This document shows, piece by piece, positions 10,162-64,000 of a stretch of 64,000 nt of DNA. The translations under genes were made by a program, and so were the position numbers. This DNA comes from Setoptus koraiensis (Eukaryota > Animalia > Arthropoda): the NCBI GenBank assembly GCA_048013815.1, contig CM106585.1, forward strand, positions 8,494,001 to 8,558,000. The letters run 5' to 3'. Below the pieces are notes generated by a model. The model saw only the letters and a program-made list of their open reading frames with translations, had not been told where the DNA came from and made no database searches. Position 1 is the stretch's first letter, and each line of letters begins with the position of its first letter.

Positions 10162-10731
10162 TTAAACGAATAATTGTATCATAGGAGGTTCGCCAAGAAT
10201 CCAAATGGAATCGGAGCACAAATCTAAATGATTATATCAATTAATATATAATAATAGCTACTTGAAGATATTTATATCGATGTATTGATAGTAAGTGATA
10301 ATAATGATTGAAGAAAGGGATTCTATTCATACAATAACAACAATTGAGAGATTCAGCTAAACGAATTGTTGTCGATAGCAATTGTCTACACTATTAGTAT
10401 GTATTAGTACGGAAATTTGTGATGATGAAGTAGCTGATTTGTACAGGGAGATGATGATGTCTGGGATGGATATAGACACAGGTCTTTGAATCAAATTAAT
10501 GCCATTGTAATAAATGATTATACGGATACCCACGGCCACGGTACAGGATCATTTTTTTTATTATTTTCGCATTTGGATGACTATTTTTCGCGAATACTTT
10601 GTGAATATTGTGTGTGTGTGGGTTCATAGGGTGTTCTTCTGTTAGGCAAGCGAGATGCAGAACAATCCATATTCCGAGTGAATCTTGTGCCGTCTGTTAT
10701 TTTCAGTGCAATTCCTCTGTGGAGATGCGTT

Positions 10732-11174
10732 TGTCATGCCCGTCTACCAATACCCGACCGCACACGCCCATTCTCACTCATACCCAGTATCCGCATGATA
10801 TGAGTACGTGCGGTACTTACATCGATTTCATGTAAGGATGCAATCTATTGATGTCGAAAACATTGCTACATCATCCCATGCTTAAGTGGACACAAAATGT
10901 CCGATTGGTTCATGAGAATTACGTACGCAAAAACACCTTAGTGATATTCGATACATTACACATCTAGCTCTCGATCGATACGCACTTAAAAATAAATCTA
11001 CATTGAAATTAATCAATCACGTAAAATAGAAAATTATTATATTGCAAATTACCTTAATTAATAGCTGCTAAACATATTTGTCCAATCAGATCATAAAATT
11101 CTAAGTCCCACTACCCACACGCGGTACCTTTTTATTCACGTCGTACCCGAACTTCTCTGCTGTTCGGCACGACA
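10732..11174 (+). repeat. 5' LTR (443 bp)
   Basis: Starts TGTCATG and ends CACGACA (imperfect terminal inverted repeat). Direct repeat of 19579-20021 differing at 10778, 11075, 11087, 11107, 11118 and 11132. Confidence 0.97.
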
Positions 11175-11176
11175 TT

Positions 11177-11194
11177 TGGTAGCAGAGCGTGGTT
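11177..11194 (+). promoter_or_regulatory. Primer-binding site, tRNA-iMet type
   Basis: TGGTAGCAGAGCGTGGTT starts 2 nt after the 5' LTR. TGGTAGCAGAG is complementary to the conserved 3' end (CUCUGCUACCA) of animal initiator tRNA-Met. The full 18-nt match depends on this species' tRNA-iMet, which is not in the window. Confidence 0.8.
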
Positions 11195-11261
11195 AGCTAC
11201 ACGGTCCGAATAAAATAACCAGAAATACCTCAAAAAGAAGATAAATATCATCAAGCTCATC

Positions 11262-12383
11262 ATGTCCAACGACACCTTTGTAAATCTCTCCGAAACCGCT
11301 ATCAATGATTTGGCCTCGGCCTTCAACCAGAATCAGACACTTCTATTGTCCAACTTGCCTCGTTTTGGCGGTTACAAAGACGAGAACGCCACCGAATTCC
11401 TGAGAGAATATAAGAATAAATTGATAACAGCGACCGATAAGATGCGATGTCTTGGATTCCGAGTTGCACTGACAGGCCCAGCATTGGTCTGGTCAAAAAC
11501 TCATCTAAAGAACGATATTGCGAATAGCGATTGGACAACAGTGAAGAAGAAGTTTAATCAACGATTTTGCGCTGATCAAACTGAATATAAATACCAGAAT
11601 AAGCTAGATTCAATGAACTACAATCCAGAAGGAAAACTGTCAATTACTTCGTTCGTTGAAGAGTTTATCGATGCGTATAAAAAAGTGAATCCTTCTACGG
11701 TCTGCAATGAAGAGTACGAGAAGCGCATAATACGAGCTGCGTATAATCGACTTCCTGATACCGTCAAAGGTCAGTTGAATTCAATTTCAAAGCTAACCGA
11801 TCTTAGATCGACCAGCGACTTCATCAAAGAAATTCAACACTATGAGAATGAAGTCGAGAGATACATTAAACAAGACAGCAAACCGGACCCCAAGTCCATG
11901 CTCGAGATAATCTCAGCGATGCAAGAACACAACACAAAAGCTCTAAAACAGGATATCCAAGACTTAAAGAAAGCCATCGCCTCACCAGCAGTATACGGAG
12001 CCGCTGGTCGTCAGGATTATCCCAGACCGAACTATCCTAAGATGCGTGACGGAAACTCCGACAGAAAATATAAGAAACCGTATCGACATTTCGACAGGAA
12101 TGTCCGTGGCAGATACGAAAACAATCAGCACCGCTACAACCGATATGAGCAACAACCTTTTCAATGTAGACAAATCGATCAAGCCCCGGCGCAGCTGGCA
12201 TTAAAATCAGAGGTACATAAAGTCACATCTCCCGAGACAGACAAGAACAGTCCTGCCATAATCGAGTATGAACGTATTCATGGCAAAGTTCCTGCACCTT
12301 GCAAATACTGTGAACAACATCACTTCAACCGACACTGCCCGTATAATCCAGAGAATTTAAAAGAACAGGGGTGCTCGAAATAA
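11262..12383 (+). CDS. gag: Retrotransposon Gag, 373 aa
   Basis: First ORF after the PBS; retrotransposon capsid-like region (LPRFGG...ATEFLREY...ALTGPALVW); basic/Gln-rich region; zinc knuckle CKYCEQHHFNRHC (CX2CX3HX4C). Confidence 0.9.
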   Translation: MSNDTFVNLSETAINDLASAFNQNQTLLLSNLPRFGGYKDENATEFLREYKNKLITATDKMRCLGFRVALTGPALVWSKTHLKNDIANSDWTTVKKKFNQRFCADQTEYKYQNKLDSMNYNPEGKLSITSFVEEFIDAYKKVNPSTVCNEEYEKRIIRAAYNRLPDTVKGQLNSISKLTDLRSTSDFIKEIQHYENEVERYIKQDSKPDPKSMLEIISAMQEHNTKALKQDIQDLKKAIASPAVYGAAGRQDYPRPNYPKMRDGNSDRKYKKPYRHFDRNVRGRYENNQHRYNRYEQQPFQCRQIDQAPAQLALKSEVHKVTSPETDKNSPAIIEYERIHGKVPAPCKYCEQHHFNRHCPYNPENLKEQGCSK

Positions 12384-12400
12384 GAGACGATTCAGCACCC
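12356..12400 (+). promoter_or_regulatory. -1 programmed ribosomal frameshift signal (slippery heptamer + stem-loop)
   Basis: T TTA AAA at 12356-12362 in the gag frame. After a 6-nt spacer, GGGTGCT (12369-12375) pairs with AGCACCC (12394-12400). The pol frame is -1 relative to gag and is open only from 12347. Confidence 0.85.
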
Positions 12401-15400
12401 ATCTATAAGATTTCAAGTCTCAACTCCAACACGAAACTTGTTATTGTGAGACTTATGGTTGGACAATTAGAAATATCCGCAGTAGTCGATACTGGGGCTA
12501 CAATATCCTTTATCCCAGCGAAAGGTTTAATCGTTTCCCTATGTAGACCAAGATTGGATAAAGAGAGAGCCAGAGTACAAGCAGTTGATAATACGTGGTT
12601 CGAAGTGGGACACACCGCAGATATACCTATTAGACCCTCAGCACTGAAAATGGATCCAATTATGTCTAAGGTACTCGTGGTGGACGATAGATCTGATGTC
12701 ATTGGACATGATATGATTCTGGGGTTGCCAGACATAAAAGCCTTCGATTTCGTAATGATGAATGTAGACGGTTTGATAACGGTTTTCAAAAATAAACAAG
12801 TCATCGGTCGAGAAGAAGTGCAGCAAAGTCAACCCGACGCTTTGGGAGCCTCTTCTAAAAATCTCGACTTGGCTTTTGACCCATACATTGATGAACGTCG
12901 TAAAGTGCTTAATATAGTCTACAATTTCGAAGAGGTGTTCGTCGAATCAATCGCGACACATATATCCTGCGAACCTATGAAGATAAGTCTCAACAGTAGC
13001 TGGCGCCCTAAACAAAAGTTGAGAAGACACAGTCCAGAGGATATAAGTGAGATGCGAAAGCAAGTTGATCGCCTCCTTGCAGCTGGTATAGTTGAACCCT
13101 CATTCTCAGACTTCTCTTCCAACGCCAGACTGGTGCCGAAAAAGAACGGTCAAAAAAGAATGGTCGTCAACTTTATACCTCTCAATCGAATAACAATTCA
13201 GGACAATTACCCTCTTCCTAGGGTCGAAGACCTATTTTTGTGCCTAAAAGACGCTAAATTCTTCAGTGCTATGGATTGCACTGAAGGATTCTTTCAGATA
13301 CCTCTAAACCGAGATGACTATCATAAGACCGCGTTTCTCACACCTTTCGGCCTATTTCACTATACAAGGTGCCCCTTTGGCCTAACCAATTCGCCTGCAG
13401 TGTTCCAACGTGTGATGAATAATATATTCGAGAAAGAGATCTATAAATCTTGCGTTATATACGTCGACGACATTCTCGTATTCGGATCAACAATTGAGGA
13501 GCACAACGAACGACTAACATCAGTCTTGAGAAAATGCAAGCAGTATAACCTGAAATTGAAATTATCTAAATGCAAATTCCTTCAGCAACAAATTGAGTTC
13601 TTGGGCCACATTATCACGGAGAATCATATTGCACCAGTAAAGGGGAAAACAGACCCAATCTATTCATTGAAACCTTCTAATAAGACAGATATTCAAACAA
13701 TCCTTGGAACCGTCAATTACTATGCCCGATTTATTCCTTCCTATCCAGAAGTAACCGCTCCATTAAGAGAATTAATCAAAGACAATGTACCTTTCATCTG
13801 GTCAGAACAACACATTGATACTCTAATGAATATAAGGAAGTGTCTGGAAAATGCCGAGCCACAAGTCATACCGTCATCAACGGAGCCTAAAATAGTTGAG
13901 CTACTAACAAATGAACGTACCATCGAAGTATCGTGCTATAACAAAGGTTATCAATTAATATCACGTGCTGGTCAGGTCTTAACAACTTCGCAAGTTAATT
14001 ACACGAGCATTGAGAAAACTCTACTGTCTATGATCTTGGCTCACAAAAAGTTTGGTATATTTTTACCTCCGGACAATACCACCTACATTAGTTCATGCAA
14101 AGACATCAACAAAATCCTCGATTTAAACGAGTTACCACCTCGTATAGAGAGACTGATCATTCGTCTCCCACCGAATTTAACTTTAAAGTTTACATTGAGA
14201 GAACCTGACTCGGTATCTTACATCTCAACAAAGTCTGAAGTACCGCCTGAAGAAATTTTCAATACAGATGGGGCCTGCTGCGGTAATGGCACCAAAATGT
14301 GCAAAGCCTCCTGGTCCGTCTGCCCCACATTTAATAAATCTCTCACTAAATCCGGTATTGTCGAAGACCCTAAACCATCTAACCAAGTTGCCGAATTGAG
14401 AGCAGCCATTGAAGCTGTCAGAATAGCTAAGGCCAATAACCTCAAGAATATTGCCATCCGTTCTGACAGTAAGTATGTTGTCAATTCTATCAACAAATGG
14501 ATACCCAACTGGGAAATTAATGGATACAAAGACAGTAAGAATAAGGAAGTCGTCAATGCCAAACTCTTGAGAGAGTTGGCCCACTTATTGAAGGAAATCA
14601 ATGTAAAGTGTTACCATATAAAGGGTCATTCAGGCGATGAGGGAAATGAGTCAGCCGACATACTAGCCAAAGAAACATTAGAAGAACATCTACATAAGTT
14701 ATGCCTCGCTGCACCTATTACGATCAATTCTCTGGACTATGATGAAGAGTATGAGAAACTTAAGGATATTGCCCAGAAAGATCCGGATTCGAATTACAGA
14801 CTCATCAACAACACTCTATACTTCCGCGATGTTCGAGCCAAAGAACCGGATCAGCTAAGATTGTTCTTGCCTACATCCAAAAGAGTGCAAGCTCTGTATA
14901 CTGCACATGATGATATGTTATATGGAGGGCATACAGGTGTAAAAAAGACTCGAGACAAACTTAGGGATGTCTATTGGCCTGGCATGTCAACTGATATTGA
15001 AAGATACATTAAAACATGTGACACATGCCAGCGATACAAAAATCCAAAGACTCTGCCGTATGGATTACTCCAGCCTATTCCTTCATCGGAAATTGGACAA
15101 AGGGTCCATATTGACATAGTCGGCCCACTCACACAGACACAAAATGGCAATCTCTACATTCTGACCGGAGTAGACGCCTTTTCAAGGTTTGGTTTTGCAC
15201 GCGCCGTCTCTAGGATAAGATCAATCGAGATCGAGGACTTCATCAATGAAGAAATAGTTGCAAAACACGGCCCACCTGCTGCCATAGCATCGGATAATGG
15301 AAAACAACTTGTTTCAAAACAGATTCTGGACTACATGGAAAAGTATAAAATTGAAGCTTTTCATACGTGCCCGTATTGGCCTCAAGCCAACGGCATGGAT

Positions 15401-17047
15401 GAACGTTTTAACGGAACTCTTGTCAAAATACTACGCACATACGTAGACGCTCACCAACTCAATTGGGACAAGATGTTAATTTATGCTCTTTTCAATTATA
15501 ACACTACTACTAATCAATCTACCAAGTATAGTCCTTATATTTTAATGTACGGTTTTGAACCGAGACATCCTCTAAAAGAACCAGCGACCATCAATACAGA
15601 GGAAATCGTACCTCTACTCACAGAGAGCCGGGATTGGGTCCGACGGAATGCTAAAGACAACATTGAAAGTGCCCAAATGATCCACAAATATTACTACGAC
15701 CGTAAGCACCAAGAACAGGACTTCAAGATCGGCGATCTTGTCCTACTAAAAACTCATGCAGTGCCCAGTAACTTATGCAAAAAGTTAGCGCACCGATGGT
15801 CTGGTCCGTATGTAGTTGTGAAATTCATCATTAAAGATGGTCAAAAGAGAGCCTTGTTGATTGGTGATCTCACCAATTTTACGATGAAAAGAGCCCCCTT
15901 TGGGGAAGTAAAACATTATCATGTTCGTAGAGATGAGAATGAAACTGATGAAGATTTAGCAGTTTACTACAATAACCTGCATAGAGAATCCTCGCCTATG
16001 CCGGTACTTCAGGTATCGAGTTCTGATCCTGGCCAGATTGGAAACGTACCAGAGGGTAGAGCAGACGGTCAGGTCATTCCTATGCAGACGTTACATAACA
16101 CAACGGTCAGTCCACCTGATGCAGTTGTTCATAATACACATGAACGATCTCTAACACCTGCAGGGTTAGAGTCCATGATACTAAATGATGGCCGAACTCA
16201 TGATCGGTGGCAGGTCTTCACAGACACTGTCCCCATGCAGTTAAATACAACCGGCCAGTCACTCGTTGACAATACGTTAAGCCATGATAATCGATGTCAC
16301 CTACCCAGTGACTCCATGCGATTACATGATAATCGATGTCACCTACCCAGTGACTCCATGCAATCACATGATAATCGATGTCACCCACTTAGTGACTCCA
16401 TGCAACCACATGATAATCGATGTCACCTACTCAATGACTCCATGCAAGCTCATGATAATCGATGTCATCTGAGCAGTGACTCCATGCAATCTCATAATAA
16501 TCAGTCACTCGCTGACAATACCCGAGCTCATGATCGATGTCATCTGATCAATGACTCCATGCAGCCTCATAATAACCAGTCACTCGCTGACAATACCCAA
16601 GCTCATGATCGATGTCATCTGATCAATGACTCCATGCAGCAGAATATTGGACAGTCACCTGTCAATAATATTCCTAACTATAATAATCAATCTCTCCTTC
16701 CGATTGACCCCACTCAACAGAATAATGAGAAAAGTCTGGACAACCGGATAGAACCTGCCGAGTCTACATTGAATTCAGCTCTAGAAAATGATAACGGTAT
16801 CGAAAACATCGTCCCCGACGTAATCAATGATAACGCTAACGAACTGTCCAACAGATTAGAAATTCAAACTGTGGCCGATCCCACAGAAATGAGTATTGTA
16901 ACAGGTAGTCAAGACAATCTTTCCTTACATAATAGTACGCCTACAAGCATACGCTCACCGCGAGCATCGTCGACACCACAACCAACGCGTTATAATTTGA
17001 GAAAAGCAGGCCAGATAAGACTACCCAGAAGATTTAATAATGACTGA
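12356..17047 (+). CDS. pol: Retrotransposon Pol (PR-RT-degenerate RH-second RNase H-IN-C-terminal repeat tail), likely expressed as Gag-Pol by -1 frameshift
   Basis: Protease VDTGA (12488); RT YVDD (13460); intact RNase H D/E/D/H/D at 14267/14393/14465/14627/14657; integrase HHCC from 14906 and D-D(35)-E at 15113/15293/15401; GPY motif about 15800; no internal stops. Confidence 0.95.
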   Translation, partial: FKRTGVLEIRDDSAPIYKISSLNSNTKLVIVRLMVGQLEISAVVDTGATISFIPAKGLIVSLCRPRLDKERARVQAVDNTWFEVGHTADIPIRPSALKMDPIMSKVLVVDDRSDVIGHDMILGLPDIKAFDFVMMNVDGLITVFKNKQVIGREEVQQSQPDALGASSKNLDLAFDPYIDERRKVLNIVYNFEEVFVESIATHISCEPMKISLNSSWRPKQKLRRHSPEDISEMRKQVDRLLAAGIVEPSFSDFSSNARLVPKKNGQKRMVVNFIPLNRITIQDNYPLPRVEDLFLCLKDAKFFSAMDCTEGFFQIPLNRDDYHKTAFLTPFGLFHYTRCPFGLTNSPAVFQRVMNNIFEKEIYKSCVIYVDDILVFGSTIEEHNERLTSVLRKCKQYNLKLKLSKCKFLQQQIEFLGHIITENHIAPVKGKTDPIYSLKPSNKTDIQTILGTVNYYARFIPSYPEVTAPLRELIKDNVPFIWSEQHIDTLMNIRKCLENAEPQVIPSSTEPKIVELLTNERTIEVSCYNKGYQLISRAGQVLTTSQVNYTSIEKTLLSMILAHKKFGIFLPPDNTTYISSCKDINKILDLNELPPRIERLIIRLPPNLTLKFTLREPDSVSYISTKSEVPPEEIFNTDGACCGNGTKMCKASWSVCPTFNKSLTKSGIVEDPKPSNQVAELRAAIEAVRIAKANNLKNIAIRSDSKYVVNSINKWIPNWEINGYKDSKNKEVVNAKLLRELAHLLKEINVKCYHIKGHSGDEGNESADILAKETLEEHLHKLCLAAPITINSLDYDEEYEKLKDIAQKDPDSNYRLINNTLYFRDVRAKEPDQLRLFLPTSKRVQALYTAHDDMLYGGHTGVKKTRDKLRDVYWPGMSTDIERYIKTCDTCQRYKNPKTLPYGLLQPIPSSEIGQRVHIDIVGPLTQTQNGNLYILTGVDAFSRFGFARAVSRIRSIEIEDFINEEIVAKHGPPAAIASDNGKQLVSKQILDYMEKYKIEAFHTCPYWPQANGMDERFNGTLVKILRTYVDAHQLNWDKMLIYALFNYNTTTNQSTKYSPYILMYGFEPRHPLKEPATINTEEIVPLLTESRDWVRRNAKDNIESAQMIHKYYYDRKHQEQDFKIGDLVLLKTHAVPSNLCKKLAHRWSGPYVVVKFIIKDGQKRALLIGDLTNFTMKRAPFGEVKHYHVRRDENETDEDLAVYYNNLHRESSPMPVLQVSSSDPGQIGNVPEGRADGQVIPMQTLHNTTVSPPDAVVHNTHERSLTPAGLESMILNDGRTHDRWQVFTDTVPMQLNTTGQSLVDNTLSHDNRCHLPSDSMRLHDNRCHLPSDSMQSHDNRCHPLSDSMQPHDNRCHLLNDSMQAHDNRCHLSSDSMQSHNNQSLADNTRAHDRCHLINDSMQPHNNQSLADNTQAHDRCHLINDSMQQNIGQSPVNNIPNYNNQSLLPIDPTQQNNEKSLDNRIEPAESTLNSALENDNGIENIVPDVINDNANELSNRLEIQTVADPTEMSIVTGSQDNLSLHNSTPTSIRSPRASSTPQPTRYNLRKAGQIRLPRRFNND
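16283..16642 (+). repeat. In-frame coding minisatellite in the pol tail: 5 x 42 bp, then 2 x 75 bp higher-order units
   Basis: Unit CATGATAATCGATGTCACCTACCCAGTGACTCCATGCAATCA encodes HDNRCHLxSDSMQx. It is followed by two alternating 36+39-bp units (HNNQSLADNTxA / HDRCHLINDSMQx). Confidence 0.92.
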
Positions 17048-17133
17048 CCATCCTATCATCTATCTACTCAATATGCCATTAATACTTACATTGAAAGAGA
17101 CTAATAATGCATAATTCTTCGATGAAACTCTAT

Positions 17134-17139
17134 TTTATT
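17134..17139 (-). promoter_or_regulatory. Candidate polyadenylation signal (AATAAA) for the antisense ORF
   Basis: TTTATT on the + strand, 22 nt past the stop of the 710-aa minus-strand ORF, in the AT-rich 114-bp spacer between the two convergent stops. Confidence 0.45.
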
Positions 17140-17161
17140 TAATGCTTAAGAACGATTTAAC

Positions 17162-19294
17162 TCAATTGTCCACGAGGACATCTTCTTCTCCCTCTATTTC
17201 GGTTTCACTACCACTCTCATTAGTGACATATCGAACCTTCACAACCTTTCTCGCATCACCTCGGTGCCCCATTCTGATGTGTCTATAAACCGAGCACAAT
17301 GAACTCGAATTGGGAGGTGCCTTGAATCGCTTCGGACAAAACGGACACTGGTCCAAGGCAATCACATAGTGATCAATTGTCGGCACGTTTAATACTGGCA
17401 AGGCATATTGGGACTGGCTGAACCCAGAAGCATTCAACATGCTGTTTGCCTTAGCCCGAGCCAGTATCAAATAGTGGACCATAAAGCTGAGTAAGGCTGA
17501 AGGATAAATTAATTTCTCCGGCAACCTTGGGCACCTGTCCATATAATCCAAAATCGTTGTCAAGGAGACGAACAAGTGCACGACGTCAGGAGCATAGGTT
17601 GAATTGATTATGCTACATTGGAGGTGATGAAATTCAACTGATTCGGGCAAACATTTGGCCAAGGACGCTTCGATGTAATTTCTGACAACATCGTGCTTTT
17701 TCAGCAGGTTGTCCTGGCACAAGCTCAAATATTCCTGATTGGCTCTGTCCAATATTATTTCTACCGGGACACCTTCAAAGTCCTCTTCTTTAATTACAAT
17801 AATTAGTAGAATGAATCTCTCCTTAGGCACCATATCGGTTAAATCAATGTAAGAATCGCGGCCATTAACGTCATCCAATGGAAGGAAACCCAAGTCCAGA
17901 TCAAGTCTCTCGTGGAATGCTCTTTTATAGGATTCAAAGAACGAGTCAACGTCTTGAGGAGAAATCTCTAACTCAACACCGTCATTGGATGGCTTTAACT
18001 CGATGGCTGGAAAGGAGTAGTACTTCGAATATTTATAGTTCTTGATGAGATTGTTCATCAACATTGAATAATCCGTGTTACTTTGAATTGAACTTCCTTG
18101 GGATAACGAAGTAAAGGATAACGTCCGTTCTTGAAACGGGTCCGAGTAATTTTCTCCAGGCATAGGAAATGATGGCGCTGGGGTGGTGTCATCCAGTAAC
18201 TCATCGGTCGGTTCAGGTTGGGTTAAAGGACAACCTAAACTCCTCATTCGAACCGACGAAGACATGCTTTTCTGAGAAGAAGATGTTGAGCACTGAGTGG
18301 AAAAACCTTCCATTAGGTCCATTGCTTCGTTGTCTTTTCGAACTCCTGTAGTCAATGGATCATCGTCAGATTTCACTGAGAGGATATCGGCCGGTTCAAA
18401 TCTTAATACCGTCGCAGGAGCTAATTCGTACATTAGCATCGCTATATAGCCGATATCGTTTTCGCCACAATGTTCAACGGTACCATTATAACGTGAGACG
18501 CTGGCTGTATCTATCTTAAAATCAAGGCAACACTCGAAGTCGAATTTAATATTATGGAAGTCACTTTCATATTCAAAGAAACGCTCATGACCAACCAGAA
18601 GATTCAAGTGGACATGTTTTCCAATGGTTATTACACCGTAAAACCAATGTTGCTGATAATTTAAGATGATGCCACTCTTTAAATTCTGCTTGAAGACAAT
18701 TTTTGGTAATTTCCCTTGGATAATATCGTCAGCGTTGACAAAATGACGCTTATCATGAAGTAATAATAATGGAAATCGACCACCACATGGAATACCAATG
18801 AACGGATCTCCGGTTCCGATTACCATTGAGGATTCTCCATCGAGGCGTATTGATATTGTACCTACATACTTTTTGAACAATTCGTCTACGGTTGTTCGAG
18901 TCAGGAACTCTAATAATATACCATGGTCGTAACAAAAATTTTGTCCACCGATAATATTGATTATTCCTAATTTGTTCCAGTTGCGAGGCTGACCAATCTG
19001 CTTGGAGATATGGAATAACTCCGGCGACAAAATATACCTGGCATCTTCTCCCATGTAAATAATGAATAATCCTTCGAGACGGTTGGCCTTCTTATCCTTC
19101 ACCATGACGACAGCATATGGTCTTTTGTGGACTCCTCGTCGGCCAAAATAACTTAGTATATCTCCCGACTCTTCAAGCAAATATGACGTCGATGTAGAAA
19201 TTCGAGTCTTCAGTACTCTAAAATTATACAGTCCACGACCTGCCAGGCGGGCTCTCAACATTTTTGTTATTAATACTCGTTTTGCTAGCTCCAT
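17162..19294 (-). CDS. Retrotransposon-borne antisense ORF of unknown function, 710 aa, with C-terminal C2H2-like zinc finger
   Basis: Uninterrupted 2,133-bp ATG-initiated ORF between pol and the 3' LTR, not overlapping pol. Contains CPFC-x18-H-x4-H and an acidic tail. No signal peptide or clear TM anchor seen. Confidence 0.85.
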   Translation of the reverse strand: MELAKRVLITKMLRARLAGRGLYNFRVLKTRISTSTSYLLEESGDILSYFGRRGVHKRPYAVVMVKDKKANRLEGLFIIYMGEDARYILSPELFHISKQIGQPRNWNKLGIINIIGGQNFCYDHGILLEFLTRTTVDELFKKYVGTISIRLDGESSMVIGTGDPFIGIPCGGRFPLLLLHDKRHFVNADDIIQGKLPKIVFKQNLKSGIILNYQQHWFYGVITIGKHVHLNLLVGHERFFEYESDFHNIKFDFECCLDFKIDTASVSRYNGTVEHCGENDIGYIAMLMYELAPATVLRFEPADILSVKSDDDPLTTGVRKDNEAMDLMEGFSTQCSTSSSQKSMSSSVRMRSLGCPLTQPEPTDELLDDTTPAPSFPMPGENYSDPFQERTLSFTSLSQGSSIQSNTDYSMLMNNLIKNYKYSKYYSFPAIELKPSNDGVELEISPQDVDSFFESYKRAFHERLDLDLGFLPLDDVNGRDSYIDLTDMVPKERFILLIIVIKEEDFEGVPVEIILDRANQEYLSLCQDNLLKKHDVVRNYIEASLAKCLPESVEFHHLQCSIINSTYAPDVVHLFVSLTTILDYMDRCPRLPEKLIYPSALLSFMVHYLILARAKANSMLNASGFSQSQYALPVLNVPTIDHYVIALDQCPFCPKRFKAPPNSSSLCSVYRHIRMGHRGDARKVVKVRYVTNESGSETEIEGEEDVLVDN

Positions 19295-19569
19295 TTATAA
19301 TTAATATTGGATAGACTCTCTTGGAATGGATTGATATGGATGAACGAATGATTTAAATCACGAAAATCGGATATGCGTTGTGAATTTAATGTAGCAAAAG
19401 ACTGAATGTCCACAGACGCCAGAAAACCGTTATTAACCACTGCACCACGTGGTTAAGATGCCGTACAAGGTTTCCCCAAATTTCTCAAAATAGAGTTTTG
19501 TTGGGGTTTTAGCCCAGTTAAACGGCCATTTCAGGGTATTATCTCGACTCAAAATCGTCGTAGATAATT

Positions 19570-19578
19570 GGGGTGGAA
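19570..19578 (+). promoter_or_regulatory. Polypurine tract (short)
   Basis: GGGGTGGAA immediately before the TG of the 3' LTR. Confidence 0.6.
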
Positions 19579-20021
19579 TGTCATGCCCGTCTACCAATAC
19601 CCGACCGCACACGCCCATTCTCACCCATACCCAGTATCCGCATGATATGAGTACGTGCGGTACTTACATCGATTTCATGTAAGGATGCAATCTATTGATG
19701 TCGAAAACATTGCTACATCATCCCATGCTTAAGTGGACACAAAATGTCCGATTGGTTCATGAGAATTACGTACGCAAAAACACCTTAGTGATATTCGATA
19801 CATTACACATCTAGCTCTCGATCGATACGCACTTAAAAATAAATCTACATTGAAATTAATCAATCACGTAAAATAGAAAATTATTATATTGCAAATTACC
19901 TTAATTAATAGCTGCTAAACACATTTGTCCAATAAGATCATAAAATTCTAAGTACCACTACCCATACGCGGTACCTTTCTATTCACGTCGTACCCGAACT
20001 TCTCTGCTGTTCGGCACGACA
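19579..20021 (+). repeat. 3' LTR (443 bp)
   Basis: Direct repeat of 10732-11174 (437/443 identical), followed by TSD CGTT. Confidence 0.97.
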
Positions 20022-20296
20022 CGTTCACCTAGGACGGCACAGTGAGCATCTATTCATGAATATCGTGATTCGCATACTATATTCACCATCACACATCAAA
20101 ACATATGCGCTCAGAGTGAACAAAATCACGGATTGTCGACGCGCTCACTCCATATGAAATGCACTGCAGTTTATTAGCGAGTATAGCTTGCTCGTCCTTC
20201 AGCAGAAGCCACTCGATCTCTTTATATATCACCAATTCATTTTCATCATTGTCTTTTGATTGATATTATATAATCGGTTTACTATATTTGACGTGA

Positions 20297-22091: not shown

Positions 22092-22164
22092 GTTTCCGTA
22101 GTGTAGTGGTTATCACGTGCGCTTCACACGCGCAAGGTCCCCGGTTCGAACCCGGGCGGAAACA
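22092..22164 (+). tRNA. tRNA-Val(CAC)
   Basis: GTTTCCGTAGTGTAGTGGTTATCACGTGCGCTTCACACGCGCAAGGTCCCCGGTTCGAACCCGGGCGGAAACA; cloverleaf with anticodon stem TGCGC/GCGCA around TT-CAC-AC; A and B boxes. Confidence 0.97.
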
Positions 22165-22174: not shown

Positions 22175-22675
22175 GCGCCTGTCTCAAGCTAGTGTTACGC
22201 AACAGCAAAAGAATACAACCTGGAAAAACCCTTATAATCCTAGCATAAATTTCAAATTTGTGCACATGAATTTATAAATATTAACAAATTGTATTGAAAA
22301 GGCAATCGAAGCTAGCTAGACTTTTTTCCTCATTTTACATAGTATGATCACCAATAATTATAGGGTTCTCTATAGACTATTTGAACAATTCACCAACAAA
22401 ATCCGCGATTAATATTGATACACTTGCAGTATCCACAGAGATATAGAATTTTCAATAAAAAAAGTTGGATTCTAAGTATAGGTGAATGCAGTGAGATTGA
22501 AGAGCTCCAAAACTTTCTAACGTCATGCTATTTTTAGAACAACTTCTGCTTGGAGATTAAAGTTTCAATTTGGGATGAAGAAACCGAATCAAGCGATTGA
22601 TTGAATCAAGGGACTTTAGGGAAAATTACTTTGAACTCGAGCACTAAAAATTAAAAAATAAGGTCCAAAAAAGTT

Positions 22676-22747
22676 TGCGTTAGCCGGGAATCGAACCCGG
22701 GTCCCGTGCGTGGCAGGCACGGATCTTAACCACTGGACCACCAACGC
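22676..22747 (-). tRNA. tRNA-Gly(GCC)
   Basis: Reverse complement GCGTTGGTGGTCCAGTGGTTAAGATCCGTGCCTGCCACGCACGGGACCCGGGTTCGATTCCCGGCTAACGCA; anticodon stem CGTGC/GCACG around CT-GCC-AC; T6 terminator at 22667-22672. Confidence 0.95.
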
Positions 22748-22894
22748 AAGACGATAAGAAAGAGTGGATGTCAGGACATTACATTGTCTAAGGCAGAGAC
22801 AGGACAAATGAGCAATATTGTGATATATCTCATGTATTTTTATATTTGAAATTATTTATTTAAACGACATCCGATTCTTAGTAATTCGAATTCG

Positions 22895-23700: not shown

Positions 23701-26541
23701 CTAATTCAAGTATTTCTGACAATTCGGCGCGCGACAATTACATCGAATCTTCTCTTCTATGGGCAGATCTTCACGAGGAAATTTGTAGTCATAGGTGATT
23801 TCCTCCTCTTCCTCAATGGTTTTACTTGCATATATTACGATGGCGTTTCCTTGCCCATTATCGTGCCGAATAACCTTGGCTATACAGTTAGGATTGCAAC
23901 TGTGATTTATGAATCTGGCCTTGTTACCCTTGAGTGTAGCATCTATAACTTGGTCGTCAACTCTGAAGAAATATGAACTTCCGTCGTGTGTCTTCAAGCC
24001 AGCATAAACCTTCTCGCGGTGATCAGCTAAAGATGGTCGAATTTTTTCGCCCACATACTCTATCACAGCTGCACCATTCGCAATCTTCTCACATGCGAAC
24101 AATCCCCATTTGTGTATCTTACTAAGAGAGAACCTCAGGTTCTTTGAGCGAATTTGCAAACTACTGAACATAAATCTCATCATCGCTGACCCGAGTGTTT
24201 CAGCATGAGCCACGGCGAACCTGCGCTGTTCACCTCGAAGGTCACTCCTTGATGAGCTCTTTACTTGTGCCCTCGATTTTATGGGAGCCTTAGAGAGATC
24301 TTCATCAACCTTATCGCCCTTCCAAACTTTCGATCCATCTTTCTCCCTCGGGAATCCATCACATCTTGAGCATCCTTTCCACCATGTTGGCGAATCACTT
24401 TCGTCATCTTTTTTATCTTTACCTTTTTTCTTCTTATTGACTTGAGGCTTGACTACTGGCTTAAATGGCAGATGAGCTCTATTAACGTCTTCTGATCCCT
24501 TTGAAGATCCTTCCAACATGCCACTGTAAACAGGATTCTCGCACATCTTGTCGTAGGCTTCCATGAGGAACTTGAAAGCTTCTTCATCGATGCCAATAAT
24601 ATCATCGATGATTCTGCTCTGCTCTTCTTCACTTCTTACATCAAAAGAAAACTCTGGAATATCACGTAATTTGTCTAAATCACCGGAGTCGTGCTTGATT
24701 CGTTTGTATTGTCGTTTAGTGGGTGGAAAGTGCTCCTCAAGAACTTTCCTCTTATTATTCGTTTTCACAATAACATCTTCATCTTCCGAGTATTCCATCA
24801 TCTCATCTATGACGCCGTCTTCTTTCTTGATTGATACCGTATTCTCGGTAGAAACGGTAGAACCAAGAGTTGCCAAGATTTGAGCCACCTCGCCTTCTTC
24901 TTCAGATCTTAGTCGCGTCTCTCTTGGGGTGGGGCGAATTTCGGAAGGTGCTTCAGGAACAAAAGGCACAGCCGATATACGAGGACTTAAATTATCCAAT
25001 TTCTTCTGTGAGGTCGTTAAGCCAGACGATGAAGAACTATCGTAGGATGATTGATCAGAGGAATCATCTGAATCTGAGTCAGATTCCGACTCGGATGACG
25101 AGGAGTCTGATGATGAGGATGATAGCGAAGTCGTATCTCTGAAATTTGTTGCTGAGCCTGCTCTAGAAGTTTGCTTTGGTTGCTCGGATGACCATGCAGC
25201 TGACCTATTCACTCTCCTGATTATATTCTCATCTGTTGTGTTTCTTTTGCCAATTGAAACTGTGTTAGAAGTTCGCCTATTGATGAAAGCATGTGGTAGA
25301 CTGCGCCGGTCAGGCACTGTGTTTGTATAGTTTGATCCCAAAACGTTTTGAATCAATTTATGATTAACTGGTTTTATATCCTCACTTTTCTTTCTCTCTA
25401 AAGAAGTTTTTTCATACTTGGCTTTTTCTGCGTCAATAAGAGGATAACCAACTTGCTCAAGAATACATTTGTGAAAGTGTTTCAAGAGAGCCTCTCTACA
25501 GGTATTTTCAAATATCTTATACAGCTCATACAGTTCTTTCTGAATCTGGGATCTAGTTAGATCTTTTGGTAATTCCCTCTGAGCGACACTCTTTTCTTCG
25601 TGATTATCGAAGGCATTCTGTTTCCTGGGTGGCGTGTTTGGTCTTTTGCGGTGATTGTGGTGATTATCCTCTTTACCACTATAGTCACGATGATTGTTCC
25701 AATCATTATGACTATTGCGTTGATTACGTTGATTGTAAGCATCTTTTCTGATTTCATTGTTGAATGATGGAAGTACATTTTCGATAGGAGATGGTGTCCG
25801 ATTGTGATAAGTCAGTTTGTTGTATTCTGGAGGGAAGATTTGATTCTTTTCATTGTGGTTGGGCATTAAACATTGCGCTAGACCCGAATTGTTATGAAGA
25901 AGAAAATTAATTCTTTCATCTAATGAACGAAATTGTGGTTCTTTACAAGTGACACCATTAGTTGGTTGCATGATCGATGGGAATTGAAGATTCGGCAGAA
26001 CTGTTGGTGGTATCAACGCCTGATGAGCAGGTGTTGTTTGTTGATTTGTTGGTGGGTGGATTATATTCTCTCTGATGGCGTTGATTTTAGTAAATCTTGG
26101 GTCGAGAAAGACAGATAGTTTCTTACCCATAAAACTCTTTTCATGGAATTTGAGTACACACTCTTTGGCATCTATAACCTTCTCAAATTGTACTTTTGCT
26201 ATACCCAAATGTGTATTATCAATTGGATGATGCAAAACATCACAATGTGAAACCTTTCCGAATTTTGATAGTTCTTTCTTGAGGAAATTATTATCAATGT
26301 TATCATTGAGATTATTAATAGATACTTGCACATCTGGCGGAACTCCAACGTAATTATCGTCAATCATAAATTTAGGTTTCACCAGATCAATATCTTTGGA
26401 GAATTTTGTCCGAGAGGAGCCTCTATATTTGATACTAGTTTCACGGGGATCAATAGTACTATCATGTTCGGAAATATTCTCTAGGGGTATGACCCTTGCG
26501 AGAGGTTTAGATTGCTGCCGTTGTTGTGGTGTAACGCTCAT
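23701..26541 (-). CDS. Set1: Histone H3K4 methyltransferase Set1/SETD1, intronless, 946 aa
   Basis: N-terminal RRM; Ser/Asp-rich region; n-SET with WIN-like GCSRCDG and RxxxRR (RGEQRR); SET domain (IEYVGE, RFINHSCNPNC, EITYDYKF); post-SET CNCxxxxC; C-terminal YLN. Confidence 0.95.
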   Translation of the reverse strand: MSVTPQQRQQSKPLARVIPLENISEHDSTIDPRETSIKYRGSSRTKFSKDIDLVKPKFMIDDNYVGVPPDVQVSINNLNDNIDNNFLKKELSKFGKVSHCDVLHHPIDNTHLGIAKVQFEKVIDAKECVLKFHEKSFMGKKLSVFLDPRFTKINAIRENIIHPPTNQQTTPAHQALIPPTVLPNLQFPSIMQPTNGVTCKEPQFRSLDERINFLLHNNSGLAQCLMPNHNEKNQIFPPEYNKLTYHNRTPSPIENVLPSFNNEIRKDAYNQRNQRNSHNDWNNHRDYSGKEDNHHNHRKRPNTPPRKQNAFDNHEEKSVAQRELPKDLTRSQIQKELYELYKIFENTCREALLKHFHKCILEQVGYPLIDAEKAKYEKTSLERKKSEDIKPVNHKLIQNVLGSNYTNTVPDRRSLPHAFINRRTSNTVSIGKRNTTDENIIRRVNRSAAWSSEQPKQTSRAGSATNFRDTTSLSSSSSDSSSSESESDSDSDDSSDQSSYDSSSSSGLTTSQKKLDNLSPRISAVPFVPEAPSEIRPTPRETRLRSEEEGEVAQILATLGSTVSTENTVSIKKEDGVIDEMMEYSEDEDVIVKTNNKRKVLEEHFPPTKRQYKRIKHDSGDLDKLRDIPEFSFDVRSEEEQSRIIDDIIGIDEEAFKFLMEAYDKMCENPVYSGMLEGSSKGSEDVNRAHLPFKPVVKPQVNKKKKGKDKKDDESDSPTWWKGCSRCDGFPREKDGSKVWKGDKVDEDLSKAPIKSRAQVKSSSRSDLRGEQRRFAVAHAETLGSAMMRFMFSSLQIRSKNLRFSLSKIHKWGLFACEKIANGAAVIEYVGEKIRPSLADHREKVYAGLKTHDGSSYFFRVDDQVIDATLKGNKARFINHSCNPNCIAKVIRHDNGQGNAIVIYASKTIEEEEEITYDYKFPREDLPIEEKIRCNCRAPNCQKYLN

Positions 26542-29072
26542 GGTGAGTTGCTTTGTAATTGGATAATATTATAGCTAGAATATACAATTTATATAATATA
26601 ATAATGTGATACTAATATTATAGTAATATTAATATTAATAATAGTGTAGATGGTGAAAATATTGATTACGGCAATGACAACAATATAAATGGTCGTTGCA
26701 TTAAAAAATTTGTCTAGTATATAGAGAAATAGCACTATCAGTAGTGGCAGTGTAGTAGAAAATATATACAACACTCCAAATCATCTTGTACCACTCGGAT
26801 TTGAGCTGCGAGCAGGAGGCTCACAGCAACCATTCCAGGCCCAGGCAAGGTAGTCTTGTGCGCGTTGGGCACGCCGTAGTAGGGCACTCTCTGATACTGT
26901 GCCCTACAGGCGCCCTTTAGAGAGCCACCAATTGAGAGCCGCAGGTGCAATCATCATCTTGCCACGATGAACAATAATTGTAAATGTGACAGATATTAAT
27001 TAGTTTGTTAATTAATATCATCATTTTTGCCTTTAATGTCGGTCACATGTCGCGGCCGCGCACATTTGCGGGTACTACAGGGTATACCCGTAAGCGTGTG
27101 TCTCTACTACCTGTAGTGGTTGGTGTCTATGTTTAGTTGTTGCCCTGTGTTTATGTGCTTGTGCTTGCACATATGACAATCCAATAGTTTTGTTCCGTTC
27201 CATTCTAGTGCGCTTAATACAGCTCATAGTGGCCTGAAAGTGAAAATCTACGTTCAAACGCACGCACAAGCTAGTCGCAGTACAGGGTGTAAATCTACGA
27301 ATGAAACGCGCGGTGCAAAATCATATCGCTTCCACTGTGCCAAGCGAAAGTAAATTATTCACACACCGTGTAGGGTGTCTCTCTCTCTCTCTCTCTAATA
27401 TAGTGTGTCACACAAATCATAAGACCGCTGCCGCCGCTGAATACAACATGTTTGATTACAAGTGTTTGATTAGACAACGATTGAATGCGCACTTTGTCAC
27501 TGATCGCCAAATGTTTGCTGCTCCACACATTATCAGACGCTCTGTATCACTCTTTTATCCACATATCCACATACTATATCTACGGCTTCAAATGAATGAA
27601 TGCAAGGTGATTTGCAGGTCGTCTTAAATTATTAATTAGCGATTGGATAACCTGGCAAGATTGTTTGAATTTCTCATCTATGGGTGTGTGTGTGTGTGTC
27701 TGCGTGGTGTGCTCATGTGTGCCCATCGAAACACCTAGACAGCAGATAGTCAAGGCGCTTGTTTACTGAAAATAATCAAATTAAATAATTTATCCACCAT
27801 GATCTATATTTGTTAGCTTGCTAGCCAACAGTGGCAGCTAACTGTGTGTATGTCTGATTGTGTGTCTGTGTGTTCGTGTGTATGTGCGTCTCTCCTTAGA
27901 ATGTCCGTTGCGAAGCTTAGCTCGTTAGCGCCTAGCAACGGTTCTATTATGATAGCGACGAACCACCACTCTCAACTGACTGGGCGCCAGGTTGACCAAG
28001 TGGTCGTCATCATCATTTGTGTGAAGTGTTGAAGCCTAAATTCATAAGGCTACACAACGAGAACATGAGACAAGACAGCTCCCGGGGACCCAAATATAAC
28101 AAGAGAGGCGAATAAGGCGACGATAAGGACGACGATAACAACGGCGACGTGTTTGCATAGGATTTCCGTCGCCAGTGGGTAGCTCTTGTTGTTGCTAGTT
28201 GCCTATTTAGAGGGTGGCTCATATTGTTATTAATACATACGCGATGTACATTGCAAATATGTGATGATCTGAAGGTTTTCAACGTCTGCCAGTCACCCGT
28301 TTGTCTGTCTACCCGTCTATCTGCCGTATGCTTGTCTATTTTTACTACATTTTATTATTGTTCATGTATTTTCTACAAGTATACGAATTTAAACCTAAAT
28401 ATTATGTTATTATTATTATACATGATTGTTTTCTTTCTATTAATTCCAGACAATATAGTAGACCTCATATATCGTATATGCCTCTAATATCTAGGATATT
28501 TGGAGGTGTGTCTATATTTTGTTTTATTTATGTAATAGATTTTATGCGGTTGCTTCTGTTTAGCGTGCGTTGCAGGGCGTAAGTCGTCATTTATTCTGTT
28601 TAGGCCACTGGGTGCAATCGCACTCTAATATTCTCTGTGCCAGTTCTTTGTAAACACAAAGCTGAGAATCGTGTTCGTGCGTATTTCGATAAGTCTTGTG
28701 CGAATCGTCTGCGTGTGTTGTGCCAAAAGCATAAACATCCATACAGGCTCAAAGTGATGATTCAGTCTCATGTGCTGTATCTTGTGCTTATCTGTACAGG
28801 TCACGCACACGTGAGTTTGTGTGCGTGCGCACAGACGATCGTAAAGTAACAAGATTTCATAGAGCACCGAATTCATGTTAACGCGCCCATTCTATCAACA
28901 GCTATGCGCAATTTAGCTATCGAAGCGCAACTTTTAAATAAATTCAAAATCTCTGTCATCACGGATACTTCTACCACATTCCCGTTTTCTGTCTTCCGCC
29001 TGTCAAGAGGTTTCCTTTGCTCCCCATCTATCGCCACCACCCGTGGACCCTCGTGCCATTTAGAGCAAGCAC

Positions 29073-31286
29073 ATGGATAAATTCAGGAATGGTGTCATTG
29101 TTGAAACAAGTAATAAGAGGAAAGTTCTTGAAGAGATCTCTCCCACTAAACGACAATTCAAACGATTCAAGCATGACACGGATGATTCAGGCAAATTACC
29201 GGAGTTTTCTTTTGATGTAAGAAGTGAAGAAGAGCAGAGCAGAATCATCGATGATATTATTGGCATCGATGAAGAAGCTTTCAAGTTCCTCATGGAAGCC
29301 TACGACAAGATGAGCAAAAATCTTAGGTACAGTGTCTTCTTAAATGGGTCATATAGAGGATCAGATGACGTTAATAGGGCTCATTTGCCATTCCAGTCAA
29401 TAGCTGAGCCTCAAGTCAATGAGAAGAAAAAGAGCAAGGATAACAAAGATGACGAAAGTGGTTCGCCAGCATGGTGGAAAGGATGCTCAAGATGTGATGG
29501 ATTCCCCAGAGAGAAAGATGGATCGATAGTTTGGAAGGGCGATAAGGTTGATGAAGATCTCTCTAAGGCTCCCATAAAATCGAGGGCACAAGTAAAGAGC
29601 TCATCAAAGAGTGATCTTAGAGGCGAACATCGCAGGTTTGCCGTGGCTCATGCCGAAACACTCGGGTCAGCAATGATGAGATTTATGTTCAGTAGTTTGC
29701 AAATTCGCTCAAAGAATCTGAGGTTCTCTCATAGTAAGATACACAAATGGGGATTGTTCGCATGTGAGAAGATTGCGAATGGTGCAGCTGTGATAGAGTA
29801 TGTGGGCGAAAAAATTCGACCATCTTTAGCTGATCACCGCGAGAAGGTTTATGCTGGCTTGAAGACACACGACGGAAGTTCATATTTCTTCAGAGTTGAC
29901 GACCAAGTTATAGATGCTACACTCAAGGGTAACAAGGCCAGATTTATCAATCACAGTTGCAATCCTAACTGTATAGCCAAGGTTATTCGGCACGATAATG
30001 GGCAAGGAAATGCCATCGTAATATATGCAAGTAAAACCATTGAGGAAGGGGAGGAAATCACCTATGACTACAAATTTCCTCGTGAAGATCTGCCCATAGA
30101 AGAGAAGATTCGATGTAATTGTCGCGCGCCGAATTGTCAGAAATCGAAAGTACGGAAGGACGATAAGGTTGATGAAGAGGATAAAGAGAATCTCTCTGAG
30201 GCTAAGAGGAAAGTTCTTGGGGAGCACCTTCCCCCCACTAAACGACAATGCAAACGAATCAAGCAAAACTCGGGCGATTCAGACAAATCTTGTGATATTC
30301 CGGAGTTTTCTTTTGATGTAAGAAGTGAAGAAGAGCAGAGCAGAATCATCGATGATATTATTGGCATCGATGAGGAAGCTTTCAAGTTCCTCATGGAAGC
30401 CTACGACAAGATGCGCATAAATCGTAGGTACAAGCTCATCTTAGAGAGGTCATATAAAGGATCAGAAGACGTTAATAGGGCTCATCTGCCATTTAAGCCA
30501 GTAGTCAAGCCTCAAGTCAATAAGAAGAAAAAAGTTAAAGATAAAAAAGATGACGAAAGTGATTCGCCAACATGGTGGAAAGGATGCTCAAGATGTGATG
30601 GATTCTCGAGAGAAAAAGATAAATCGAAAGTTTGGAAGGGCTATAAGGTTGATGAAGAGCATGAAGAAGACGAACAGGATGAAGAGGATGAAGAGGATCT
30701 CTCTGAGGCTCAGAATAAATCAAGTACTCAAAAGAAAATTTCATGGAGATGTCATCTCAGAGGCGAACCGCGAAGGTTCGAGGAAACTCTAGGCAGTGCA
30801 ATAATGAAATCCATGTCTGGCAGTCTAAAGAGTCGCTCAAAATTTTTAGAATTTTCTCAGAGTAAAATACACAAATGGGGATTGTATGCTTGTGAGACGA
30901 TCCACATTGGTGCACCTGTGATAGAGTATGTGGGCGAAAAAATCAGACTTAGTTTAGCTGACCACCGAGAGAAGGTTTATGCTGAATCCAAGACACATGA
31001 CGGAAGTTCATATTTCTTCAGAGTGGACGACCAAGTTATCGATGCTACACTCAAGGGTAACAAGGCCAGATTTATCAATCACAGTTGCAATCCTAACTGT
31101 ATAGCCAAGGTTATTCGGCACGATAATGCCCAAGGAAATGCTCTTTTATTATTATATGCATGCAGAATCATTGAAAAAGGTGAGGAGATCACTTATGACT
31201 ACAAATTTCCTCGTGAACATGTGCCTAGGTCCGAGAAGATTCGATGTAACTGTCGCGCTGACAATTGTAAGAAATATTTGAATTAG
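29073..31286 (+). CDS. Set1-derived protein with two tandem n-SET/SET/post-SET modules and no RRM, 737 aa
   Basis: Intact ATG-initiated ORF (in-frame TAG at 29061). Unit 1 is about 29094-30142 and unit 2 about 30203-31286. Each is homologous to the Set1 C-terminal third and has RFINHSCNPNC, EITYDY and post-SET cysteines. Confidence 0.88.
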   Translation: MDKFRNGVIVETSNKRKVLEEISPTKRQFKRFKHDTDDSGKLPEFSFDVRSEEEQSRIIDDIIGIDEEAFKFLMEAYDKMSKNLRYSVFLNGSYRGSDDVNRAHLPFQSIAEPQVNEKKKSKDNKDDESGSPAWWKGCSRCDGFPREKDGSIVWKGDKVDEDLSKAPIKSRAQVKSSSKSDLRGEHRRFAVAHAETLGSAMMRFMFSSLQIRSKNLRFSHSKIHKWGLFACEKIANGAAVIEYVGEKIRPSLADHREKVYAGLKTHDGSSYFFRVDDQVIDATLKGNKARFINHSCNPNCIAKVIRHDNGQGNAIVIYASKTIEEGEEITYDYKFPREDLPIEEKIRCNCRAPNCQKSKVRKDDKVDEEDKENLSEAKRKVLGEHLPPTKRQCKRIKQNSGDSDKSCDIPEFSFDVRSEEEQSRIIDDIIGIDEEAFKFLMEAYDKMRINRRYKLILERSYKGSEDVNRAHLPFKPVVKPQVNKKKKVKDKKDDESDSPTWWKGCSRCDGFSREKDKSKVWKGYKVDEEHEEDEQDEEDEEDLSEAQNKSSTQKKISWRCHLRGEPRRFEETLGSAIMKSMSGSLKSRSKFLEFSQSKIHKWGLYACETIHIGAPVIEYVGEKIRLSLADHREKVYAESKTHDGSSYFFRVDDQVIDATLKGNKARFINHSCNPNCIAKVIRHDNAQGNALLLLYACRIIEKGEEITYDYKFPREHVPRSEKIRCNCRADNCKKYLN

Positions 31287-32711: not shown

Positions 32712-47437
<14,726 letters not shown>

Positions 47438-61700: not shown

Positions 61701-63840
61701 CAATACAATTTATATGTTATATATAAAACAAAATATATGTTTTGCGGTGATAACTGCAGTGTCTTGGCGTTGTATTTTCCAACTTTTTTGTAGGCCGCTC
61801 TCGCTCCTCCCACTGTGATTTTGCGACCAGTAATGGGAGGCAAGTTTGCCTCCCATGGGCTCGGGCGACACGGCACGAGAGAGGCTCAATTGTTAAATCA
61901 AGTGCGCACAATTGAGATGGAGCCGTCTCTTGCTATTAGCGGCAGTCGCTTGTAAATAGGCTTGCCGACCATCTGTCAGACGTTGCGAGCGACGACGGAC
62001 GACAAGAGGGCGCCCCAAGCCGGCCATATAACACACACACACACACACACATATATACATAACAAATAGAGCAAGTGACACACAGATAAAAAACTAAACT
62101 GCCCGTCCGACGAGCCCATTGAAATAAAGTGATATCCGCATGCCGCACGTATATGCAGCACGCCAGACAACAGCGACTCGTTATGTAATCGGTCGTTGTC
62201 GGGCGGCGTCTTGCAGGGTTCACGTTGCCACTGGCTGGCACCATTTGGGGTCCGCCAGCGCGCTCGTCAGCGTCGCGCCGGGAGCCCCAAACGGCGCGAC
62301 GCGAAACAGCGGCAAGCACTGGGCAAACGGCGAGCGCTTGGCAAACAGCGATAGACGGCAAAGGAAGGGCCAGACGCTGGTTATATCTATCATCTGGCTA
62401 GCAGATATTAGCGAGCTAGGGCAAATGTCGCGCGTTGAGATGTTTCAACTGGGGCGCCACTAAACTGGCCGCTGCAAGCGCTGAAAGCCGGCCGCTGCAA
62501 GCTGGCCGCTGCAAGCTGGCGGGGGCGCCATTGAGGCCCCGCTGACAAATCGAAAGTGAGCTCACTTTCGAGCCCGCCGCCAGTGGGGCCGGCCCGTCGG
62601 GCGGCCCACGACAAGCGGACGAAAATGAATTGTGATTTGGTGCTGGCCGGCTCAAGACACTGGCCAGCGCGCCGACCGCCAAGTGGCGGCGGCCCGGGCC
62701 AGCCAGCAGCGGGCCGGGCGAGACAAGTGGCGGCCCGAGCAGCGGACGGATATTTGCAGAAATTGCCAGTTCCGCTTGGGTGCCGTTTGGCGCCCCCGTT
62801 GTGGCCGGCGGCGCGCCAGCAAGCAGCGCCGGCTAGCTGCGGCCAGTGTCGCCAATGTCGCTAGGTCCTTTTTAGCGGCGTGGCTGTGATTACTGGTTAC
62901 TGTTGTTGCCAATTGTGTGTCGCTGGCACGACGACGGCCACGACGACCACCGTGACACGGCATAAACTGGCGCACCACACATAAACGCAGCCATGACGTA
63001 ATTGCATTCATGGTGTCATCCATACGCCACTGTGTGACGCAATATATGGATCATATCAAGACGACAGCGCACAATTGCCATGACCATTGTGCCACCACAC
63101 AAGCTGTGATATATGCCGCGATATATGCCGCGATATACGCCGTGATGTACGCCGTGATGTACGCCGTGATGTATGCTGGACAGTGGGGCCAGTGGGGCCG
63201 GCGGACGCATATATCACGATGCTGCCGCCAGCATGATGATGTGATGATATGTGTGAGCGGCAATTTACTCTCATTACAGCCGCTCGCTGGCCGCCGAGTG
63301 ACCCGCGCGGCCCGCTCCGGCCGCACCGCTGGCTCGCTGGGGCCCCGGCACGCAGCCGCACACAGCCCGTGCGAGGCGATAAATAGCTTGAAAACTAAAT
63401 TGAAATAGAACAGAATGGAACAACAAAATAAAATAAATCACCGCGCCGGCCGATTTATCCGACCACATTTATCTCTTTCAGTGACTCGGCCATGGGCTTA
63501 CGCTTCACCTCTCATGTCTAAATCGCTAAATCTCATTCAATTGGCCCTCTCTCCCTCTCTCTCTCTGCCCCCAACGCAACGCCATTGCAACTGACCAAAA
63601 CTGACCAAAACTCACCAATGAATTATGTCACAACGCACACGCCCGACTGTCGGATATCGCGTGCAAATCTCGCTCGTGCGCCGCTCAATCGCTCACCAGC
63701 TACTGGTCACTCCTATTGGCCTTGCTGGCCCTGCTTCGTGAGCCCCTTATTTCGTCCTTGGCCGGCCCGCCGACGTCGGTGCGGTCGCCGGCGTCGTTGT
63801 GGTCGCCGGCGTCGTTGTGGTCCTGGCTCGCCAACAGCGA

Positions 63841-63905
63841 CACAACAACAACAGCAGCAGCACAACAACAACAGCAACAACAACAGCAACAACAACAGCA
63901 ACATC
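63841..63905. repeat. (CAA/CAG)n trinucleotide repeat
   Basis: About 20 CAA/CAG triplets in GC-rich non-coding DNA. Confidence 0.85.
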
Positions 63906-64000
63906 AGCACCCAAATGGTCAGCGCTGCTGCTTTGTTGCCTACGCCCTACAGCTGACCAGCAGCTCTACCGGCCCCACCGGCCTCGTGGGCCCCATTGGG

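Follow-up and report, generated by a model that had tools for sequence, protein, structure and literature searches.

A Ty3/gypsy retrotransposon family with a decayed native RNase H and an added RNase H1-type domain, probably captured independently of retroviruses

Elements carrying two RNase H (RH) domains are on record in retroviruses and lokiretroviruses (PMC7947760), in Odin elements (PMC9040795), and in Tat, Chronos, and Archon (PMC10508981, PMC5348765, PMC4408406). PMC10508981, published in 2023, lists only these groups in its available sections and describes the added RH of Tat, Chronos, and Archon as archaeal-type. A tether, the remnant of a native RH, followed by a new RNase H is a hallmark step of retroviral origin. 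A search of the open literature, with subscription journals, Repbase, Dfam, and GyDB outside its range, returned no mite or arthropod dual-RH case of the type described below, and the available portion of PMC6562904 contains none. The dual-RH family described below is apparently undescribed.

The window, which is the whole 64,000-nucleotide stretch of DNA analyzed here, contains an intact Ty3/gypsy-type LTR element at 10732-20021. The LTRs, target-site duplication (TSD), primer-binding site (PBS), and polypurine tract (PPT) of a Ty3/gypsy LTR retrotransposon (Metaviridae) are present, as is the Pol order protease (PR), reverse transcriptase (RT), RH, and integrase (IN). The features are as follows.

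10728..10731 (+): 5' TSD, CGTT; the empty-site joint is 10727>20022, and the four letters fit either side
10732..11174 (+): 5' LTR, 443 bp, TG..CA, 6 mismatches to the 3' LTR
11177..11194 (+): predicted primer-binding site, PBS-like TGGTAGCAGAG
11214..12383 (+): gag ORF, Retrotrans_gag E 1.3e-5
12300-12338 (+): CCHC-like knuckle, C-terminal in gag
12347-17047 (+): pol ORF, a single open frame in the order PR-RT-RH-RH-IN
12356..12362 (+): predicted -1 frameshift site T_TTA_AAA in the gag/pol overlap; a hairpin follows 6 nt later
12434..12748 (+): aspartic protease; the D of its DTGA motif is at 12488
13010..13846 (+): RT with its thumb; the YVDD motif is at 13460
about 13859..14215 (+): tether or connection, a native Ty3/gypsy RNase H fold that lacks its catalytic residues
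about 14252..14698 (+): acquired RNase H1 domain of the His type, with an intact D-E-D-H-D
14840..15580 (+): integrase with its HHCC and core, followed by a GPY motif near 15800
16241..16679 (+): 42-nt and 75-nt tandem repeats in a low-complexity Pol tail
17162..19294 (-): antisense ORF3, 710 aa, C-terminal C2H2-like finger
19567..19578 (+): predicted PPT, a purine-rich tract 5' of the 3' LTR
19579..20021 (+): 3' LTR, with CGTT then at 20022-20025

The PBS TGGTAGCAGAG is presumably that of the initiator tRNA-Met, and its 11-mer is also found in nine of the 20 family loci, a set of which many are partial. The frameshift heptamer TTTAAA[AC] is present in the window and in all seven related loci inspected; the hairpin 3' of it has a fold z of -1.84. 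Tandem repeats after the integrase are seen in the Pol tails of L014, L017, L019, L020, and L031 as well, with units that are unrelated between members. No env was found in the window element, whose sole extra ORF is the antisense ORF3. This ORF matches nothing in Pfam, NCBIfam, or the PDB and lacks a hydrophobic or membrane segment (maximum 1.45); five of its seven listed variants are synonymous. A homologue lies at L025:5465-7552 (-) in a matching position and orientation (27% over 198 aa), and none was found in the remaining family loci examined.

The second RH is a clear match to Pfam RNase_H (E 1.5e-30). Its active-site residues are D 14267, E 14393, D 14465, H 14627, and D 14657, so that the complete D-E-D-H-D domain proposed in the first-pass annotation is located residue by residue. 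The best match in the PDB is human RNase H1 (83 bits), ahead of bacterial (57) and foamy virus (30) RH, and the second RH of the homologue P0071 gives 107 versus 63 bits in favor of human RNase H1. The earlier assignment to eukaryotic RNase H1 rather than to the archaeal type agrees with these scores and with a histidine that is present in 42 of 42 family members. Searches with P0071, aimed first at long relatives that bear an RH and then at cellular RNase H1, returned 4 and 3 matches, none of them a named eukaryotic RNase H1.

The region between the thumb and this domain is derived from an RH. It matches two Pfam families, RT_RNaseH_2 at E 2.5e-4 and RT_RNaseH at E 2.5e-3, in neither case reaching the curated cut-off. 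The region is collinear with the RH of Ty3 (4ol8), and the predicted fold agrees with the alignment, as the annotation had recognized from the letters alone. The loss of all three acidic sites claimed there was likewise borne out: the positions of Ty3 D358, E401, and D426 (numbering from PMC5371799) hold N or L, T, and S. The fourth acidic site, Ty3 D469, is also missing together with its helix. All motifs quoted in the annotation fall within the one pol frame. The interval first given for the two domains was 13883..14680, and the remnant begins about 25 nt upstream of that start.

An AlphaFold model built on a 58-row alignment has a pLDDT of 93.4 and contains two consecutive RNase H folds; it was used instead of a fold from the single sequence, for which the pLDDT was only 33.9. 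Residues 1-418 of the model superpose on the RT-RH of CaMV (Z 35.0, rmsd 2.5, 410 aligned) and of Ty3 (Z 34.2, rmsd 2.7, 356 aligned). The whole model is in register with foamy virus, MLV, and HIV-1 RT, with the last domain positioned differently (rmsd 17-21). The arginines of the Ty3 dimer interface are unconserved even in single-RH controls (8/75 and 14/75), and any inference from them about a monomer or a dimer is therefore uninformative.

The two domains occur together in a family of 42 Pol proteins, the window included, after removal of 4 same-cluster duplicates. The family consists of a close subgroup (n=34, including the window) and a distant subgroup (n=8). In the second domain D, E, D, and H are present in 42/42 and the last D in 41/42, and the 5-residue spacing typical of cellular RNase H1 is seen in 38/42. 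The native domain has fared differently. Its D, E, and D are kept in 1/34, 3/34, and 2/34 members of the close subgroup and in 0/8, 7/8, and 0/8 of the distant one, where the first site is E in 6/8; single-RH controls keep all three in 20/20. The pattern of the fourth site is found in 0/42 dual-RH proteins versus 18/20 controls. Because the native glutamate is kept in seven of eight distant members versus three of 34 close ones, the distant subgroup looks less decayed. As judged from these residues, erosion of the native domain is partial in the distant subgroup and almost complete in the close one. The residue counts thus extend the earlier note: dual RH is a trait of a large family in which the native domain has decayed by degrees.

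That the element is an arthropod one was an inference of the annotation, and the sole named dual-RH member among those looked up, RWS01320.1 of the distant subgroup, is from the mite Dinothrombium tinctorium. The Pols of P0168 and P0078, also of the distant subgroup, have terminal C2H2 zinc fingers, echoing the finger of ORF3. For the homologue P0019 the top architecture-feature match was a chordate RT+RH+RNase_H cluster (0.94), a match of architecture only and not evidence of kinship.

The RT trees comprised 4 foamy viral, 4-5 orthoretroviral, 1-2 badnaviral-like, and 36-74 single-RH rows. Odin, lokiretroviruses, cellular eukaryotic RNase H1, and the named GyDB lineages are outside all trees, with foamy viruses and orthoretroviruses as proxies; a motif scan of viral contigs for Odin and lokiretroviruses gave no match. 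In the careful RT tree (65 rows out of 295 RT stretches, C20) retroviruses are split from all others (99/94) and the family lies within a Ty3/gypsy polytomy. Three further RT trees give the same split. The branch that encloses the family among Ty3/gypsy elements has a support of 83/86. Of the two origins left open by the first-pass annotation, independent capture is favored by the best RT, RT+IN, and RH trees. We consider it probable that a Ty3/gypsy lineage independently captured an animal-type RNase H1, its native RH being stripped of acidic residues. The capture likely happened once, in the ancestor of this probably mite-associated family, and independently of retroviruses.

The other origin, a retrovirus-proximal relative, is disfavored by the trees, although AU testing does not reject it. 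The family would then be a protostome lineage that is sister to Odin, lokiretroviruses, and retroviruses; its tether would go back to the event that gave rise to theirs, and its second RH would later have been replaced by a host RNase H1. We regard this as unlikely. AU tests gave p 0.346 for the close subgroup with retroviruses, and 0.16 in another test whose RT tree has support labels one node off on the rerooted path; p was 0.35 and 0.47 for close, distant, and foamy together. For close and foamy on RT+tether+IN the value is borderline, 0.0499. One RT+tether tree weakly joins foamy viruses to the family (SH-aLRT 71), the foamy connection aligns well with the tether by eye, and retroviruses are reported to have replaced their RH repeatedly (PMC7947760, available sections). 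The RCPFG motif is common to the close subgroup (24/37) and several lokiretroviruses. Against this placement stand the four RT trees, the RT scores (195 bits to Ty3 versus 112 to foamy), and a hand count over 118 RT positions, of which 51 are identical to Ty3 and 39 to Odin-Aeq3. RCPFG excepted, the RT, RH, and IN signatures of Odin and lokiretroviruses are absent from the family by eye against the alignments in the available part of PMC9040795. The distant subgroup lacks RCPFG (0/8) and retains the native glutamate. Profiles of the tether score ordinary gypsy RH at medians of 35 and 59 bits (n=20) versus 9 and 6.5 for the foamy connection (n=16), but these scores are biased because the gypsy controls are the top matches of the query. 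We hold it doubtful that the retrovirus stem has its first protostome lineage in this family, env-less and still mobile, with a distant subgroup whose native RNase H is half decayed. Such a placement, if true, would fill a gap unexpected in protostomes by the Odin paper (PMC9040795, available sections).

A single capture also has to be weighed against the possibility that the close and distant subgroups each captured a similar RNase H1, or that recombination carried the domain from one subgroup to the other. Neither the careful RT tree nor the IN tree joins the subgroups, and with the close-group profile the RT and IN of distant members reach scores no higher than those of single-RH gypsy elements. 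The protein P0169 carries a related RNase H1 domain at another position, upstream of a protease-like domain in a different ORF, and this domain groups with the second RH of the family. The subgroups are joined in the FastTree RT tree (93) and one further RT tree, in the RT+tether+IN tree (99.7), where foamy viruses lie elsewhere, and in the RH tree, where close, distant, and P0169 fall on one side of a branch (SH-aLRT 97). The second RH occupies an identical position in Pol in both. Separate captures or a transfer thus seem quite improbable, and we retain the single capture. P0169 is possibly a further position variant, as in Tat.

The donor of the second RH is judged by similarity only, since cellular eukaryotic RNase H1 is absent from all trees. 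A non-LTR RH as the donor is conceivable, given that a link between retroviral and non-LTR RH has been reported (PMC7947760, available sections) and that donors are thinly sampled, with one non-LTR row (P0017). Human RNase H1 is clearly the best solved match, and the family clade in the RH tree lies apart from that row, from 24 viral RNase H1 rows, and from foamy, lentiviral, and bacterial RH. We therefore hold a non-LTR donor to be highly unlikely.

The element was found in three of the four public runs compared; in X7 none was placed. All three runs that carry it also contain a contig of the empty site (10727>20022), and the insertion is thus polymorphic. The window element has likely inserted recently. 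One of the runs X1 and X2 may be the source of the window itself. The junction between tether and second RH is crossed by single contigs in X1, X2, and X4, which rules out an assembly join as the cause of the dual RH. A chance ORF was ruled out by the same contigs and by the family-wide residue counts. All seven tether variants between copies in the public runs are synonymous, where about 0.22-0.23 is expected at random. For the second RH the figure is 5/8, and for PR, RT, and thumb 23/26 of the variants listed, with about 0.22 expected at random in each case. The dead domain is therefore retained, and the variants show purifying selection on this catalytically dead native domain. Across 13 relatives, identity to the window is 30-55% for the tether, which in most exceeds the protease (19-55%).

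Genes are dense in the window, and its eukaryotic ORFs are long and uninterrupted, a character similar to that of an eriophyoid mite genome (PMC7738191, available sections); a mite is the likely host. Related elements in other loci are also surrounded by similar genes. The insertion is just upstream of a dihydrolipoamide dehydrogenase-like gene and about 2 kb from a tRNA-Val at 22092-22164 (+) and a tRNA-Gly at 22675-22748 (-). SET-domain genes at 23701-26568 (-) and 29064-31286 (+) have a common 946-nt inverted repeat (94% identity), and the latter gene has an internal duplication with two SET matches. The gene-dense part has a GC content of about 39%; 34000-46000 and 60000-64000 are at 47-58%, with microsatellites and no long ORFs.

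The retained tether likely serves as a connection domain. In the mechanism we propose, it would bind the hybrid and space the nuclease from the polymerase, and once reverse transcription had been primed by a tRNA and completed, the RNA strand and primers would be removed by the second domain, which would also generate the PPT primer. We infer that all RNA removal is performed by the second domain. Cleavage would probably occur in cis, as in XMRV/MLV RT, instead of with an RNase H borrowed from a second subunit, as in Ty3 RT (PMC5371799). The capture may have been followed by loss of the equivalents of D426 and D469, and then, in the subgroup of the window, of E401. Candidate benefits of the swap are cleavage in cis, a monomeric RT, and faster strand transfer; more strand transfer as a benefit of dual RH is a speculation found in PMC4408406. 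Since the family has dozens of members with intact frames, shows the decay at two stages, and includes a recent copy, the benefit becomes directly addressable. If the capture was independent, the retroviral event was repeated with the same kind of domain, His-type and animal-like, in an animal host.

Among known systems, as described in the available sections of the papers cited, Odin of sea anemones (PMC9040795) is similarly an env-less LTR element with gag and pol, and with a tether followed by a fungi/metazoa-type RH. Its RT is sister to lokiretroviruses. In the Odin RH an insertion separates the His motif from the last helix, and NQxAE is lacking, whereas the family has the 5-residue spacing (38/42); the RT and IN signatures also differ by eye. 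Tat of plants and Chronos and Archon of oomycetes share with the family a Ty3/gypsy background and a degraded native RH, after which an intact RH has been added at the same place. Their added RH is archaeal-type with an arginine, and the histidine in 42/42 family members therefore excludes them. Retroviruses and lokiretroviruses have the same RT-connection-RNase H layout, and the model aligns at full length with foamy virus, MLV, and HIV-1 RT. The family differs in the absence of env, in an RT nearer to Ty3, and in second RH domains whose clade is separate from the RH of foamy viruses and lentiviruses. Insect errantiviruses (PMC13524379) are arthropod Ty3/gypsy elements in which RT and integrase are likewise separated by two RNase H-like folds. 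In these an env is present, and the degenerate, topologically altered copy is the C-terminal one; their order, with the first RH active and the second degenerate, is reversed in the window element. Human RNase H1 (2qk9, 8swb) shares its catalytic motifs and spacing with the second RH, which differs in lacking the N-terminal hybrid-binding domain and in being embedded in Pol.
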